Below, piece after piece: positions 7,068 through 23,361 of a stretch of DNA of 26,728 nt. Numbering within the stretch: position 1 is the first letter of the stretch; each line of letters opens with the position of its first letter. The notes below the pieces were generated by a model, which worked only from the letters and a program-made list of their open reading frames with translations, was not told where the DNA came from and searched no databases. Source of the stretch: Nanobdellota archaeon. Its GTDB lineage: Archaea; Aenigmatarchaeota; Aenigmatarchaeia; QMZP01. The stretch spans positions 1 through 26,728 of the forward strand of contig JBDRJQ010000008.1 in NCBI GenBank assembly GCA_043814765.1, written 5' to 3'. A program made the position numbers and the translations under genes.

Positions 7068-7811
7068 TTCCCATTCCAGTTTATCTGCCATTTTTATTGA
7101 CTCGAATGTTCCAATGTCATATCTCTGTCCTTTGAAAACATAACCATACATTGGATAACCAGCTTTTCTCATTAGCTCCAAAGAATCTGTGAACTGCAGC
7201 TCGTTGTTTGCACCAGGCGTTGTTTTTTCTATGAACTCGAAAATCTTCGAGCTGACGATTATCATTCCTGCTATATTATAGAAAACCCCATTTGATTTGT
7301 ATTGCTCTGCCTGCTCCCATGTCGGTTTTTCTATCATACCGAGTACTTGGTTATTCTCATTTATTTTTACGACACCAAATCTTCTAGGATCATCAATTGG
7401 ATGCAGAACCAATGTTGCTGCAGCCTTTTTCTCTTCATGAAATTTCAAAACATCTTTCATTATGCTAGTGGGTTTGAAGTAATTATCACCATATGAAACA
7501 ACAAAATCTTCATCTTTGCCTATCCAGTCTTTTGCCTGATGAATTGCATGTGCAATACCCTTTTGCTCTTCCTGCACTCTGTAATAAGCATTAATTCCAA
7601 AGGACTCTCCAGAGCCAATATAATCTAAAATGGCTCCTTTTTTCCAGCCTGTTACAATTAGAATGTCCTTTATGCCTCCTTCTTTTAGCCCGTCTATTAC
7701 GTGCTCTATGACAGGTTTTGTCCCAACTCTTATCATTTCCTTAGGGATTGACCTGGTTAAGGGTTCCAGCCTGGTTCCCTTGCCTGCAGCAGGTATCACA
7801 GCTTTTATCAT
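7050..7811 (-). CDS. Sugar-1-phosphate nucleotidyltransferase (G1P uridylyl/thymidylyltransferase-like)
   Basis: AVIPAAGKGTRLEPLTRSIPKEM, YGDN, IEKP, DIGT. Start reassigned to ATG 7811, immediately after the ugd stop. Confidence 0.9.
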   Translation of the reverse strand: MIKAVIPAAGKGTRLEPLTRSIPKEMIRVGTKPVIEHVIDGLKEGGIKDILIVTGWKKGAILDYIGSGESFGINAYYRVQEEQKGIAHAIHQAKDWIGKDEDFVVSYGDNYFKPTSIMKDVLKFHEEKKAAATLVLHPIDDPRRFGVVKINENNQVLGMIEKPTWEQAEQYKSNGVFYNIAGMIIVSSKIFEFIEKTTPGANNELQFTDSLELMRKAGYPMYGYVFKGQRYDIGTFESIKMADKLEWESNSSS

Positions 7812-7812
7812 A

Positions 7813-9090
7813 CTACCAGCAAACTCCTTCAAAGTCTTTTACATAATCTGGATTAAGAACCTTTCTGCCCTCTATAATTACGCGGTTCTTCATTAAATTA
7901 AAGTCTTCATCTTTTAATTCTTTAAATTCATCCCATTCTGTCAGTATGAGACATCCATCCGCATTTTTTAATGCTTCCTGCGGGCTTGCATTGAATTCTA
8001 TATTATCAAATATTTTTTTGATGTTGGTCATGGCTTTTGGGTCGTAAACAGAAATCCGAGTTCCTTTTTCATTCAATTTTGCAATTATATCAATTGCCGG
8101 AGACTCTCTAACATCATCGGTTCCTGGTTTAAAACTGAGACCAAGGATAGTTATTTTTTTGTCTTTCAGTTCCATTTTGCTCTCTAACAATTCAATTATT
8201 TTCATTCTCTGCTCCTTATTGCTGTCGAGTACTTGGCTCAAAATCTTTGCGTCGTGACCCAGCTCCTTGGATCGCGCGACTAGCGCGGCGACATCCTTCG
8301 GGAAGCATGAGCCTCCAAACCCAACACCCGCATCGAGGAACTTCTCTGAAACGCGGCTGTCCATGCCGACAATCTTCATAACATCATAAACATCAGTGCC
8401 AAGCTTCTTGCAGACATTTCCAATCTCGTTGGCAAAACCAATCTTTGTCGCAAGCAGCGCGTTGGACGCGTATTTTGCCAGCTCCGCAGTCTTTGTGTTG
8501 GTTCGAACGAAGGGGCATGTGTGATTTGAATATACCTCAACCAAGGCGTCGCCGGACTTCTTGTCATGCTCTCCTATGACAATTCTATCAGGATTTTCAC
8601 TATCATAAATTGCGTGACCCTCTCTAAGGAATTCCGGATTCATGCAGACACCGAAATCCTCTCCAACTTTCTTTCCAGATGCTTCTTCTAAAATAGGTAT
8701 AACAACTTCTTCTGTTGTTCCTGGTATAACAGTAGATTTTACAACAAAAACGTAATAGTCTTTATTTTTTATCTTCTCTCCTATGCTCTTTGTTGCATTT
8801 TTTACATACTCAAGATTTATGCTGCCATCATCTCTGGAAGGTGTCGGAACACACAAAAAACAGATGTCAGAATTCTGTATGGCGTAATTCAAATCAGTTG
8901 TAGCCTCTAAATTAACCCCTTCAAGATATTCCTTTAGTTTAGGTTCAAATATTGAAGGCTCCTTTCGCCTTATAGATTCAACTCTTTTCTCATCAACATC
9001 CACGCAGATGACGTTATGACCCTGTTTTGCTAGAACAACAGCTGTGACCAAACCAACGTACCCAGAACCTATAATACTGATATTCATCAT
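7813..9090 (-). CDS. ugd: UDP-glucose 6-dehydrogenase
   Basis: IIGSGYVG, CVPTP, KSTVIPGT, MNPEFLREG, GFGGSCFPKD catalytic Cys, GLSFKPGTDDVRESP. Confidence 0.93.
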   Translation of the reverse strand: MMNISIIGSGYVGLVTAVVLAKQGHNVICVDVDEKRVESIRRKEPSIFEPKLKEYLEGVNLEATTDLNYAIQNSDICFLCVPTPSRDDGSINLEYVKNATKSIGEKIKNKDYYVFVVKSTVIPGTTEEVVIPILEEASGKKVGEDFGVCMNPEFLREGHAIYDSENPDRIVIGEHDKKSGDALVEVYSNHTCPFVRTNTKTAELAKYASNALLATKIGFANEIGNVCKKLGTDVYDVMKIVGMDSRVSEKFLDAGVGFGGSCFPKDVAALVARSKELGHDAKILSQVLDSNKEQRMKIIELLESKMELKDKKITILGLSFKPGTDDVRESPAIDIIAKLNEKGTRISVYDPKAMTNIKKIFDNIEFNASPQEALKNADGCLILTEWDEFKELKDEDFNLMKNRVIIEGRKVLNPDYVKDFEGVCW

Positions 9091-15206: not shown

Positions 15207-15791
15207 ATGGAAAAGAGGCCAATTAAAAAAGACGAGTGGGCAATAGTGCTAGACTTCTTATCTCATGGTCACCACGCTATGGAGAGAACCCAGCCAGTGG
15301 CACAGGTTGTGGGTGAAATATACTTTTCTTTACTGGAAGTTATAGTGAGAGACGATGTATCATTGGAGATAGATGAAAGAGTGTATATTGGAGATGGAAA
15401 GAGAGATAAAATCAAATACATAAGAGGACGGTTAGAATTTGATAAACTTACAGTCTCTGCAAAAGAAGAGCTTTCAGATATAGTAACTAATGTTGTTAAA
15501 AAGAATCCAGAAAGATTTATTAACTTTTACAATAATGCTGGACAGGTAACTACCCGATTTCACCAGCTAGAACTTCTTCCAGGCATAGGTAAAAAGCATC
15601 TTTGGGCCATAATAGATGAAAGGAAGAAGAAACCTTTCGAGTCCTTTGAGAATCTTAAGAAAAGAGTTCCACTTCTTCCGGATCCAGAAAAAACAATTGT
15701 AAAAAGGATAATGGAAGAGTTTTTGGATAAAGACAAATACAGGATATTCGTTCCAAAATTTGAAAAGCAAGACAATTATAGAAGAAGATAA
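15207..15791 (+). CDS. DUF655 family putative RNA-binding protein (HhH)
   Basis: AIVLDFL, AQVVGE.YFSLLE, VYIGDGKRDK, HQLELLPGIGKK, PFESFE. GGTGAT RBS. Confidence 0.9.
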   Translation: MEKRPIKKDEWAIVLDFLSHGHHAMERTQPVAQVVGEIYFSLLEVIVRDDVSLEIDERVYIGDGKRDKIKYIRGRLEFDKLTVSAKEELSDIVTNVVKKNPERFINFYNNAGQVTTRFHQLELLPGIGKKHLWAIIDERKKKPFESFENLKKRVPLLPDPEKTIVKRIMEEFLDKDKYRIFVPKFEKQDNYRRR

Positions 15792-15819
15792 ACCCTTTAA
15801 GAAAAGGTTCAATTCAAAA
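15788..15819 (+). repeat. REP-like hairpin element, copy A
   Basis: ATAAACCCTTTAAGAAAAGGTTCAATTCAAAA. By-eye alignment gives 27/33 identity to the tRNA-Pro intron copy. Confidence 0.6.
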
Positions 15820-15851
15820 AAACAGATTTAACCAAAAAGGAGGGAATGTGA

Positions 15852-16283: not shown

Positions 16284-16348
16284 TTAAAAAGTATTTATTA
16301 AGATTCGGTATCATATAACACTATATCGATTGCATCAATTAACTGTAT

Positions 16349-16520
16349 GGGCCCGTAGCTCAGTTTGGCCTAGAGCGCCTGTCTTATATGACTTCTAAGC
16401 GTTCAGCTTAGATCAGCGCTAGGTTAGCAGGAGGTCCTGGGTTCGAAAGCAACCCTTTTTAAGGTGAGCAGGCAAAAGGTCTGCACCCCAAAATGGCTGC
16501 GGAGACTCCCAGCGGGCCCA
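16349..16520 (+). tRNA. tRNA-Ile(UAU) with two introns: 37/38 (16389-16425, 37 nt) and 59/60 (16448-16506, 59 nt)
   Basis: Acceptor GGGCCCG/CGGGCCC plus A73; D-stem GCTC/GAGC; anticodon stem CCTGT/GCAGG with loop CT-TAT-A|A; T-stem CTGGG/CCCAG with loop TTCGAA|T. Intron 1 BHB helix CTTA/TAGG. Intron 2 has a relaxed BHB (TTCG/GGAG, one mismatch). No encoded CCA. Confidence 0.88.
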
Positions 16521-16666: not shown

Positions 16667-18325
16667 ATGACAAATCCCATGATTGCTAACATTGGCGGAC
16701 AGCCAGTATTGATACTCTCTGAAGGAACTATGAGAAGCAAAGGAAGGGAAGCACAGAGAAATAATATAGCTGCAGCTAAGGCAGTTGCAGACGCCGTAAG
16801 AACTACTTTAGGTCCAAAAGGCATGGACAAAATGCTTGTTGATTCTCTTGGCGACATTGTTATAACGAATGACGGAGCAACAATTCTTGATGAGATGCAG
16901 ATAGAACATCCTGCTGCAAAAATGATGGTAGAGGTTGCCAAAACACAAGACAAGTCTGTTGGTGATGGAACAACTACAGCCGTCGTTTTGGCCGGCGAGT
17001 TCTTGAAGAAAGCAGGTGACCTGCTTGATCAGGAAATTCATCCCACTGTTATCACAAAAGGATTCAGGATGGCAAAGGAAAAAGCACTAGAGGTCTTAGA
17101 TTCAATTGCACAAAATGTTAACATAAAGGATGAAAAAACTCTATTGAACATTGCAAAAACTGCAATGACAGGAAAATCAGCAGATAGAGCTTCTGATGTT
17201 CTTGCAAAACTTTCAGTGGATGCTGTAAAGAAAGTTGCAGAAGAAAATGATGGTAAAATAGAAATAGATAATGATAACATAAAAATCGAAAAGAAATCTG
17301 GCGGATCAATGTCAGATACAACTTTGATAGAAGGTGTTTTAGTCGATAAAGAAGTTGTTCATTCTGGAATGCCAAAAAAATTAAAAAGCGCAAAAATAGC
17401 TTTGTTAGACTTTGCTCTTGAAGTAAAATCTCTAGAAAGCGATGCTAAAATACAGATAAACGACCCTTCACAAATGCAAGCATTCCTTGACGAAGAAGAG
17501 AGAATGCTAAAATCAATGACAGACAAAGTTGTAAAAACAGGAACAAATGTTGTTTTCTGTCAGAAAGGCATAGACGACACTGTTCAGCATTATCTTGCAA
17601 AAGCAGGCATAATGGCAGCAAGAAGAGTAAAGAAATCAGACATGGAAATGCTCGCAAAAGCAACAGGCGCAAAGATTGTTAGCAACGTAAATGAGTTATC
17701 AAAAGAAGATCTTGGTAATGCAGGTCTTGTTCGTGAAAGCAAGGTCTCTGGTGACGACATGATTTTTGTTGAAAAATGTCAGTCTCCAAAAGCAGTTACA
17801 ATTCTGATAAGAGGTGGAACAGAGCACGTTGTTGACGAAGTTGATCGTGCAATGCAGGACGCTGTAAAAGGTCTTATAGCAGCCCTTGAAATCGGTAAAG
17901 TAGTTGCTGGTGGAGGCAGCCCAGAAATGGCTATTGCAAAAGAGCTAAGAAAATATGCAGAGTCATTTAGTGGCAGAGAACAGCTTGCAGTGAATGCATT
18001 TGCAGAGGCAATGGAAATTATTCCAAGAAGCCTTGCTGAAAATGCTGGTATTGATCCAATAGACACACTTACAAGTCTAAGATCAGAGCATGATAAAGGA
18101 AACAGAGAGCATGGTCTTGACGTGTTTACTGGTGAAATCAAAAACATGTCAGAATTGGGCGTTATTGAGCCTCTGAAAATTAAAACACAGGCAATAAAAT
18201 CTGCTTCAGAAGCAACAGAAATGATACTCAGAATCGATGACATTATATCAGGCAGCACAAAAGAAGGTCCTGGCGGTATGCATGGCGGTATGCCAGGCGG
18301 AATGCCTCCTGGTATGGGCATGTAA
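16667..18325 (+). CDS. thsA: Thermosome subunit (group II chaperonin)
   Basis: [45 protein letters not shown]-terminal GGMPGGM tail. Subunit letter not determinable. Confidence 0.97.
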
Positions 18326-18353
18326 TAAGCTTTTAAAAAAAGCTTAACCAAAA
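18325..18353 (+). repeat. REP-like hairpin element, copy B
   Basis: ATAAGCTTTTAAAAAAAGCTTAACCAAAA. The stem has AAGC/GCTT in place of AACC/GGTT, a compensatory change. Confidence 0.6.
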
Positions 18354-18357
18354 CCCT

Positions 18358-18390
18358 TTTTAGGATTAAACCCTTTTCTAAAGGGTTTAC
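18358..18390 (-). repeat. REP-like hairpin element, copy C (inverted relative to B)
   Basis: Reverse complement reads GTAAACCCTTTAGAAAAGGGTTTAATCCTAAAA. Confidence 0.65.
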
Positions 18391-18420
18391 TATAAATGAT
18401 TCCTTGAACAAATAATTAAT

Positions 18421-22990: not shown

Positions 22991-23104
22991 CGGACCCGGA
23001 GGGATTCGAACCCACGACCCCCAGATTTCTTCATAGGCATTAGCCTCGAAACTTCTAAATGCAGTTTAGAAGTCTGGTGCTCTATCCAGCTGAGCTACGG
23101 GCCC
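22991..23104 (-). tRNA. tRNA-Arg(UCU) with a 40-nt canonical 37/38 intron (23027-23066)
   Basis: GGGCCCG/CGGGTCC plus G73; D-loop A20; stem CCAGA/TCTGG with loop CT-TCT-A|A; BHB helix CTTC/GAAG with bulge AA|A; T-loop TTCGAAT; T-stem has one T.T mismatch. Followed by a T-tract. Confidence 0.92.
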
Positions 23105-23190
23105 ATGCAGTTAACTGATGCAATTGATATAAGCCGTTAACTGTTATGGTATAATAATAAAATACAAAATCATTAATAAATACAACTGTA

Positions 23191-23327
23191 GGGGCTATGG
23201 TGTAGTTTGGTCTAGCATCTCAGGCTGGGGGCCTGGTGACCCCGGTTCAAAATAAACCTTTTCTAAAAAAGGTTTAATCCAAAAGAAGGCTGAAGCCTTT
23301 CATGGTATGAAAATCCGGGTAGCCCCA
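23191..23327 (+). tRNA. tRNA-Pro(GGG) with a 62-nt intron at 59/60 (23252-23313)
   Basis: GGGGCTA/TAGCCCC plus A73; stem TCAGG/CCTGG with loop CT-GGG-GG; T-stem CCCGG/CCGGG; BHB helix TTCA/TGAA with bulges AA|A and AA|T. Confidence 0.92.
23252..23284 (+). repeat. REP-like hairpin element, copy D (inside the tRNA-Pro intron)
   Basis: ATAAACCTTTTCTAAAAAAGGTTTAATCCAAAA, beginning at the first intron base. Confidence 0.65.
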
Positions 23328-23361
23328 TCATATTTAAATCGTTTAGAATCTTTTATTTGAT

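Follow-up and report, generated by a model that had tools for sequence, protein, structure and literature searches.

Why should an intron in the T-loop of an archaeal tRNA gene begin with the same hairpin and tail that stand, elsewhere in the genome, at the stop codons of protein genes? The question is raised by the tRNA-Pro(GGG) gene in a stretch of 26,728 nucleotides (nt) of contig JBDRJQ010000008.1, from a Nanobdellota archaeon (Aenigmatarchaeota; DPANN); this whole stretch is hereafter called the window. The original prediction, made from the window alone, held that a miniature element resembling repetitive extragenic palindromic (REP) sequences seeds or invades non-canonical tRNA introns or, alternatively, that introns have spread to gene ends. 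We compared the window with the remainder of the source genome (G000; 859 kb (0.86 Mb), approximately 37% G+C, 88% complete), with a congener (G001; approximately 70% nucleotide identity to the source genome in syntenic stretches), and with a set of relatives that amounts to 101 genomes, the source genome counted among them. On balance, the results probably reflect a structured family of bulge-helix-bulge (BHB) tRNA introns that is mobile by copy and paste and has also inserted at other sites. The evidence lies in the structure of the module shared by these introns, its fixed place within them, its spread over the order, and sites outside tRNA genes that are filled in one genome and empty in another.

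In unspliced form, the tRNA-Pro gene and the tRNA-Ile gene of the window are missed by both ARAGORN and Rfam. For the intron test, the interval was removed in silico and ARAGORN was then run on the joined exons; once approximately 23252-23313 had been taken out, tRNA-Pro(ggg) was called in 63 boundary variants. In addition, minimum free energy (MFE) folds were computed, and BHB geometry was searched for under strict criteria (the BHB scan) around each copy recovered by R1, a covariance model of the module for which genome rows were kept at E<=1e-3. The features of the gene are the following, H1 and H2 being the two hairpins of the module:

23191..23327, + strand: tRNA-Pro(GGG) gene, T-loop interrupted at position 59/60 (ARAGORN after intron removal; the fold gives a cloverleaf plus a bulge-helix-bulge).
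23252..23313, + strand: 62-nt bulge-helix-bulge intron of the H1-linker-H2 family (BHB scan, MFE fold).
23253..23276, + strand: H1, a 10-bp hairpin 1 nt past the 5' splice site (sequence, MFE fold), with its 5' arm at 23253-23262, loop at 23263-23266 and 3' arm at 23267-23276 (MFE fold).
23277..23284, + strand: linker AUCCAAAA (MFE fold), the tail of which is kept in almost all copies.
23285..23301, + strand: H2, the second hairpin; base of 3 bp, one bulged U, covarying top of 3 bp, loop of 4 nt (alignments).
23302..23313, + strand: 3' intron segment (BHB scan, MFE fold).

The BHB scan returned one solution, with cuts at 23251/23252 and 23313/23314, in which the 5-bp outer helix is the T-stem, the central 4-bp helix UUCA/UGAA lies between two 3-nt bulges (AA|A, AA|U), and the inner helix has just 2 bp. 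The central helix forms between UGAA at 23308-23311 and T-loop nucleotides 54-57 (UUCA), and AA at 23312-23313 is part of the 3' bulge. The MFE fold of 23191-23330 reproduces the T-stem, the 3-nt bulges and the 4-bp helix, followed by H1 (z = -3.1). The original prediction was right, in coordinates as well as in sequence, that the 59/60 intron starts with the hairpin and its tail. Moreover, a tRNA splicing endonuclease is encoded in the source genome (PF01974 match at C37:39348-39605, E = 1.4e-21). As its single open reading frame (ORF) of at least 396 amino acids (C37:38712-39900, locus L163) combines an N-terminal domain with two catalytic domains, of which one is strong and the other weak, the enzyme is, judging from its domain composition, a fused multi-unit form.

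The repeated unit is larger than the hairpin of the original prediction: it is a structured module of approximately 50 nt, in which H1 is followed by the linker and by H2. In the copy alignment, the linker has the consensus AUCCAAAA, and H2 shows a base of GGA/UCC type and, besides the bulged U, a top that covaries and a loop of 4 nt; in the tRNA-Pro MFE fold the linker pairs with sequence 3' of H2, which would be closed by a predicted pairing between the CCA of the linker and UGG at 23304-23306. The 5' flank of H1 reads UA/AG, then AAACC, and variants of the tail include UCAAAA, GCAAAA and GCGAAA. The stems covary between copies, as had been proposed. In an alignment of 51 distinct copies from several genomes, double changes occur in 62 stem cells; shuffled data gave 21 +/- 3, and of 500 shuffles not one reached 62. 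In the same alignment, 87% of the stem cells pair, a value favoured by the alignment having been fitted to the model; the columns of H2 pair less well owing to length variation and insertions. At pair 3-36, for instance, UA occurs 25 times, GC 9 times, CG 5 times and AU 3 times, and H1 stems differ between genomes by compensation (AAACC/GGUUU, AAGCC/GGCUU, AAGCU/AGCUU).

Hairpins made of A and T runs form easily in a genome of approximately 37% G+C, and chance resemblance among AT-rich hairpins therefore had to be considered. It is refuted by the shuffles and by the distribution across genomes. An nhmmer profile of H1 plus tail, seeded with 17 copies of the source genome (the intergenic copies of the window not being among the seeds), gave 46 matches of >=14 bits in that genome, where the seed copies match by construction, versus 0 in each of 10 dinucleotide-preserving shuffles, the best of which reached 13.8 bits; for the window, the expectation of the pattern by chance was 0.00. 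Moreover, the tail and H2 are conserved across genomes. The shuffle control suggested together with the original prediction thus came out on the side of a genuine family, with the tail conserved and half of the loci in introns. No Rfam family scored above chance for the module or for the loci outside tRNAs, and the viral contigs gave no exact match to the H1 plus tail pattern. Other identities were considered and set aside: a C/D-box or H/ACA guide RNA (the copies that were read have no box motifs at consistent positions), a B recognition element/TATA promoter formed by the 3' arm of H1 and the tail (the conserved tail is not TATA-like and takes GC-rich forms in relatives), and a tRNA-like minihelix in which NCCA follows the hairpin (CCA is not strictly kept in the tail).

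We then located the module in the source genome. R1 returned 33 rows, from which 30 curated loci were obtained after removal of two rows in which the palindromic H1 was echoed on the opposite strand and of one match within a coding repeat. Fifteen loci lie in tRNA introns (8 in the T-loop and 7 in the anticodon loop) and 15 elsewhere. The predicted specificity for non-canonical T-loop introns did not survive this count, as seven of the 15 intron copies occupy the canonical anticodon-loop site. The T-loop introns with the module belong to tRNA-Pro (GGG and UGG), tRNA-Leu (CAG and a second Leu gene), tRNA-Ser (UGA and CGA), tRNA-Thr (UGU) and tRNA-Val (GAC); those in the anticodon loop belong to tRNA-Ala, tRNA-Asn, tRNA-Cys, tRNA-Ser (CGA and GGA), tRNA-Pro (UGG) and one gene read as tRNA-Thr (GGU) by its BHB geometry, so that tRNA-Ser(CGA) and tRNA-Pro(UGG) hold the module twice. 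ARAGORN called tRNA-Ser(gga) after interval removal; for the multi-intron Leu gene at C29:68256, it gave no confirmation after removal of a single interval, and this gene was counted on its T-arm, acceptor end and BHB. A pattern scan for T-loop introns yielded 21 candidates, 12 of which had tRNA flanks by eye. Together with two known introns that the scan missed, these make 14 T-loop introns, of which 8 carry the module, 5 belong to a sister type that we call family 2 (tRNA-Ile included), and 1 to neither.

The place of the module within the introns is closely fixed. In 12 of the 15 intron copies, 7 T-loop introns among them, the 5' cut of the BHB falls 0-2 nt into the R1 match, that is, 0-2 nt before the H1 stem, and the inner helix measures merely 0-2 bp, which means that H1 abuts the 5' bulge. 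The T-loop copy of tRNA-Thr(UGU) gave no BHB match at the expected place. At one locus (C35:29100-29560, locus L005), a stretch of no more than 450 bp brings together three copies of the module, two in the introns of tRNA-Ser(CGA) and one in the 107-nt intron of tRNA-Val(GAC); no clear ortholog of the tRNA-Val and tRNA-Ser(CGA) introns was found in the congener.

The T-loop introns of the Pro, Leu and Ser genes (61-62 nt; the longer Val intron excluded) are 81-98% identical, compared to 54-84% for the flanking exon parts; between Pro GGG and Ser CGA, for example, the introns are 92% and the exons 64% identical. In the congener, the T-loop intron of tRNA-Pro(UGG) has a different sequence and a non-consensus hairpin. 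Of 17 tRNA-Pro genes compared within the family, the T-loop is interrupted by an intron in 10 and uninterrupted in 6, and 1 is unclear; five of the 10 introns contain an H1-like hairpin, and the other five are of another kind or tiny. The intron-less alleles that the original prediction had looked to were thus found (6/17 genes), and the variation among these genes indicates that the intron and its cargo are dispensable and turn over.

Outside tRNA introns, 7 of the 15 loci start -4 to +1 nt from a same-strand stop codon, all such distances having been taken from a crude in-house ORF caller. Five weaker R1 matches also sit on stop codons, one non-intron locus abuts the 3' end of tRNA-Ser(GCU), and at least two are antisense to their neighbours. 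Filled and empty sites could be compared at several of these places. At the rpl23/rpl2 junction, the source genome has a 34-nt H1 plus tail insert directly after the stop codon; the hairpin is absent in 29 relatives of the order as well as in G001, G005 and G030, which have few bases between the stop codon and the ribosome-binding site, or another arrangement. At the rpl30/rpl15 junction, 31 nt of H1 plus tail follow the stop codon and are absent in 29/29 relatives, the flanks around the insert being otherwise nearly the same in the closest-matching junctions. The reverse situation also occurs, as the congener has a full module of 71 nt between two genes where the site in the source genome is empty (C16, ~5930), and a further empty site lies in the window:

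7806..7816 (approximate), - strand: empty site where the congener has an H1 plus tail insert (alignment of locus L134 of G001 with window positions 7730-7880).

Two further insert sites of the congener align with degenerate or altered hairpins in the source genome, which suggests decay.

Every non-intron copy has a close match among the intron copies: in the best cases, the intron of Asn is matched at 31/32 nt (including a shared imperfect stem), that of Pro(UGG) also at 31/32 and that of Ser(GGA) at 30/32, and two gene-end copies are 32/32 identical to each other. Near-identity that extends to loops and to a stem imperfection points to copying between intron and non-intron sites. We also considered that gene-end copies might be spliced out of mRNAs. 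This idea was dropped, since BHB motifs around the non-tRNA copies occur at the rate of shuffled flanks (at least one match in 21-77% of the shuffles per locus); none was consistently found at the H1 boundary. To judge from these motif counts, the non-tRNA copies are probably not spliced.

The window itself contains both kinds of copies, together with a family 2 intron:

15787..15829, + strand: H1 plus tail copy (R1, genome-wide E = 4e-4).
18325..18353, + strand: divergent copy of H1 plus tail, its stem being AAGC/GCUU and its tail AACCAAAA (hairpin regular expression only).
18338..18391, - strand: H1 plus tail copy, antisense, tail to tail with the 18325 copy (R1, genome-wide E = 3e-4).
16349..16520, + strand: tRNA-Ile(UAU) gene with an anticodon-loop intron and a T-loop intron (once the T-loop interval is taken out, ARAGORN calls tRNA-Ile(tat) and a canonical intron in it).
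16448..16506, + strand: T-loop intron of tRNA-Ile, sister type 'family 2' (boundaries set by eye, uncertain by 1-2 nt).

The first bases of the 15787 copy are the stop codon of the ORF at 15207-15791, with the next ORF 23 nt downstream; the syntenic intergenic region of the congener is longer, aligns poorly and has no such hairpin. The 18325 copy starts at the stop codon of the thermosome gene (16667-18325). Both hairpins at the 3' end of this gene are absent at the same site of the congener, and in the 80 related thermosome loci compared, the sequence downstream of the gene contains no copy recovered by R1. Of the three intergenic copies originally listed, the two at 15787-15829(+) and 18338-18391(-) were recovered by R1; the one at 18325-18353(+) is the weakest member, as neither R1 (E<=1) nor the nhmmer profile (E<=10) recovers it. 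The T-loop intron of tRNA-Ile does hold a loop-expanded relative of H1, as predicted: it has H1-like arms, an expanded loop, a ACCCCAAAA tail and no clear H2, and four more family 2 T-loop introns occur elsewhere in the source genome. In the congener, the T-loop intron of tRNA-Ile is a standard H1-linker-H2 module with a large insertion in H2; the exons of the two genes are almost identical, with one difference in the T-loop, while both introns differ. To our knowledge, tRNA-Ile with anticodon UAU is uncommon in archaea.

Over the whole set, R1 matches at E<=1e-3 occur in 54 of the 101 genomes, with up to 18 per genome. By coded family, they are found in 26/46 (f1), 18/23 (f2), 5/5 (f4), 1/1 (f3) and 1/14 (f6) genomes, and the remaining families of the class gave only two weak matches. 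The 19 best loci from other genomes are mostly tRNA introns, located by eye in the T-loop, the anticodon loop and the D-loop region, and a few of them sit after protein genes; copies in the D-loop and variable region were also read by eye in relatives.

This distribution is one of several points that weigh against a mobile intron family. The module is old and structurally conserved across families, which would also fit a host function under purifying selection, and the intron positions in tRNA-Ile, Thr(UGU), Cys and Pro(UGG) are common to the source genome and its congener, apparently by vertical descent. The strict BHB criteria gave no match for the anticodon-loop introns of Ala, Ser GGA and Pro UGG. 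Four filled sites show neither an evident target-site duplication nor a consistent target motif (one insert of the congener has a possible 3-4-nt flanking repeat, which is ambiguous), and the boundaries of the inserts were drawn from crude ORF calls and from alignments in which the other genome is at most ~70% identical. As to a mobilising enzyme, neither the Y1/RAYT transposase (PF01797; in the source genome, 88% complete, or the congener) nor a reverse transcriptase (PF00078; in the source genome) was matched, and the TnpB zinc-ribbon match in the source genome is sub-threshold, other transposase families not having been searched. The insertions outside tRNAs support the idea of an inserting element; within introns, the element is old and occurs in several families of the order. 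Of the original proposal, the shared family and the insertion behaviour stand, and the spread may have followed either of the two routes offered, an element that seeds or invades introns or introns that spread to gene ends.

A host function is the most serious of the competing explanations, although we consider it unlikely. H1 and its tail would then be a binding or processing site for a host factor, the copies of which were recruited by selection and whose mobility is incidental; at gene ends it could act as a 3'-end stabiliser or an intercistronic processing signal, and in introns it could aid pre-tRNA folding or the presentation of the splice sites. In its favour, the module occurs in more than half of the genomes and in several families with compensatory changes that keep H1, H1 is fixed beside the 5' bulge in 12/15 introns, the linker and the 3' part of the intron are predicted to pair, and most non-intron copies are co-oriented with the upstream gene, on its stop codon. 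Two stand-alone loci with promoter-like and terminator-like flanks also begin with the module. Nevertheless, the gene-end copies are not conserved at the orthologous rpl2, rpl15 and thermosome sites, and the near-identity of intron and non-intron copies, loops and stem imperfection included, points rather to copying. Moreover, tRNA-Pro genes of relatives work without an intron or with tiny introns that have no hairpin, so that H1 is not needed for splicing or tRNA function. Transcription terminators, that is, palindromes with a T-run whose likeness to the introns would be convergence in AT-rich DNA, would explain why copies lie directly past stop codons and once directly past a tRNA 3' end, and the congener does have a T-rich tract at the thermosome 3' site. 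However, the T-runs of the copies range from T3 to T6, and those of the gene-end copies at 15787, at 18338, on C33 and on C36 are only T3-T4, no longer than in the intron copies. Several copies are located within operons, two of them among ribosomal-protein genes and 13-16 nt ahead of the next start, and if the same T-run acted within tRNA introns, tRNA synthesis would be cut short. Terminators also leave the A-rich tail and H2 unexplained, and shuffles give no such matches; altogether, we hold this account to be most improbable.

Hardly more probable is an archaeal REP or IS200/IS605-derived miniature element, the hairpin of which would be mobilised as single-stranded DNA by an HUH transposase (Y1, of the type of the REP-associated tyrosine transposases, RAYT) encoded elsewhere. 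The copies are short, oriented, hairpin-forming and numerous at gene ends, Y1 is present in some relatives, and the filled sites without target-site duplication agree with the HUH (Y1) chemistry of transposition, from which no such duplication is expected. However, Y1_Tnp is lacking in both G000 and G001 and does not track the element: it occurs in 20 of the 101 genomes, distributed over 13/54 element-positive and 7/47 element-negative ones. The high-copy genomes (G000, G001, G005, G044, G049 and G019) are without it, and no TnpB scored above the family cut-off. In addition, the conserved GTAG that stands 5' of the hairpin in bacterial REPs is not present at H1. The label "REP-like" is therefore not supported in its mechanistic sense, and the co-occurring HUH/RAYT/IS200-type transposase that had been suggested as a check found no match in the source genome at its completeness of 88%.

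How, then, could a mobile intron family be tolerated in tRNA genes? The module defines a family of BHB tRNA introns in the lineage of the source genome and its order. In a tRNA gene it sits 1-2 nt past the 5' cut, the 3' end of the intron pairing with four exon loop nucleotides and the T-stem or the anticodon stem serving as the outer helix. With the BHB supplied by the intron 3' end and the exon stem, the host endonuclease could excise the module and leave the tRNA unharmed; such excision is modelled from the geometry of the BHB. Copies in tRNA loops would persist as splicing neutralises them. The module, or H1 plus tail alone, would also insert elsewhere, mostly after stop codons and oriented as the upstream gene; lacking a BHB at these sites, a copy would remain in the transcript as an intercistronic or 3' hairpin, and a short insert between a stop codon and the next ribosome-binding site would be tolerated. 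Selection may account for the position at stop codons, and either selection or integration at the RNA level for the orientation bias.

A bolder extension, which is possible but which we advance only tentatively, is that the module is a vehicle for new BHB introns, a gene-less mobile element moving between tRNA loops and stop-codon-proximal sites. As nearly all copies are co-oriented with the host transcript, movement at the RNA level is possible; the endonuclease/ligase splicing reaction could run in reverse into transcripts, with copying back to DNA thereafter, or else an undescribed DNA activity might be at work. The T-loop would be a near-palindromic target in which one or two changes would complete a BHB motif. 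If this extension holds true, it would provide the first identified donor and route for the gain of archaeal tRNA introns. Spliceable introns and fresh non-tRNA insertions with empty alleles represent one sequence family in both states, which makes intron gain testable, experimentally and by population genetics, in a single lineage. Moreover, since standard tRNA finders miss the intron-bearing genes, DPANN genomes may look tRNA-poor when they are not.

Further loci in the source genome carry the module in other forms. The two stand-alone loci (C20:30768-30900 (+), L016; C20:33863-33730 (-), L013) start with H1-linker-H2 and gave no tRNA detection. Both have a 3' hairpin of GACGACU...AGUCGUC type plus a T-run and an AT-rich promoter-like stretch approximately 40 nt upstream, and possibly represent small RNA genes that use the module as a framework. 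The expanded H2 of one of them is also present in the tRNA-Val intron. Another hairpin family that recurs (GACGACUAUA...UAUAGUCGUC) adjoins tRNA or small-RNA loci in both genomes, namely L016 and L013 on C20 of the source genome and, in the congener, sites 5' of tRNA-Ile and 3' of tRNA-Pro(UGG). Long versions of the element (C29:45571-45743, C31:5442-5300 and C20:26747-26646; L158-L160) consist of an H1 variant, a conserved insert of ~50 to 130 nt with its own hairpins, and the linker; two of these loci also have H2, a stop codon marks the start of at least one, and none has an Rfam match. Look-alikes of H1 plus tail occur in frame in Lys/Glu-rich protein segments (...EPLEKVQPKK...) at C37:21750-21795, C37:9462-9506 and C28:35377-35429, and, at locus L131 of the congener, in a translation GTPase, the N-terminal extension of which contains the look-alike; either composition has produced them by coincidence or they are in-frame insertions. 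In the window, tRNA-Arg(UCU) (22991-23104, - strand) stands back to back with tRNA-Pro and has a 40-nt canonical intron with an H2-like hairpin and without H1. A near-identical 25-nt motif (ATCAATTGCATCA.TTAACTG.ATG) lies directly 5' of tRNA-Ile (16326-16348, +) and of tRNA-Arg (23105-23130, -) and probably serves both genes as a promoter or leader element; upstream of tRNA-Ile in the congener, a related version occurs in interrupted form.

Several known systems resemble this family in part. Archaeal non-canonical BHB introns at tRNA position 59/60 lie in the T-loop, with the T-stem as the outer helix, a 4-bp central helix and two 3-nt bulges. The tRNA-Pro intron has the same site and geometry, and the endonuclease gene is present; it differs in the near absence of an inner helix, in H1 following right after the 5' bulge, and in its conserved interior module. 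Bacterial REP/RAYT systems are alike in their short imperfect palindromes, present in tens of copies, oriented at gene 3' ends and with compensatory stem changes, whereas here the host is archaeal, RAYT/Y1 is neither present in the source genome nor associated with the element in relatives, half of the copies lie in tRNA introns, and there are an A-rich tail and a second hairpin. IS200/IS605-derived miniature elements and miniature inverted-repeat transposable elements are non-autonomous, hairpin-bearing insertions of defined length; the inserts described here are likewise non-autonomous and hairpin-bearing, with filled and empty sites between relatives, but they measure only 31-71 nt, and no inverted repeats beyond the hairpin, target-site duplication, TnpA or TnpB were seen. 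Introners, as presented in the consulted part of PMC11282704, share the principle of a mobile element that becomes an intron by bringing or completing splice signals; they are spliceosomal and reside in eukaryotic protein genes, unlike the archaeal tRNA introns considered here, the BHB of which is spliced by protein enzymes.

The closest parallel comes from the Thermoproteales, where very similar introns have been transposed between different tRNA isotypes (Fujishima et al. 2010, as cited in the accessible part of PMC4090602). The same portion of that 2014 review describes the transposition mechanism of archaeal tRNA introns as unknown, and a 2026 preprint on Asgard archaea (10.64898/2026.10.13.758758), in the part available, tested copying, mobile elements and reverse transcription, reported no general arrival route and left the matter open. 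In the literature search, which covered its sources in part, no report was found that DPANN have a conserved intron module of two hairpins or that sequences of an intron family are inserted at gene ends. The statement of the original prediction that no link of this kind had been described was nevertheless too broad, given the related intron families that different tRNAs have in common in the Thermoproteales (PMC4090602, accessible part). As far as these excerpts describe them, the two systems agree in having similar introns in different isotypes, at canonical as well as non-canonical sites and more alike than their host genes. They differ in that the present family belongs to a DPANN lineage, has a defined, covarying two-hairpin structure across several families of the order, and is also inserted, in a lineage-specific manner, outside tRNA genes at stop codons. 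Compared with the excerpts consulted, therefore, intron families common to different tRNAs were already known, and what is new here is that the sequence of such a family also lies outside tRNA genes.

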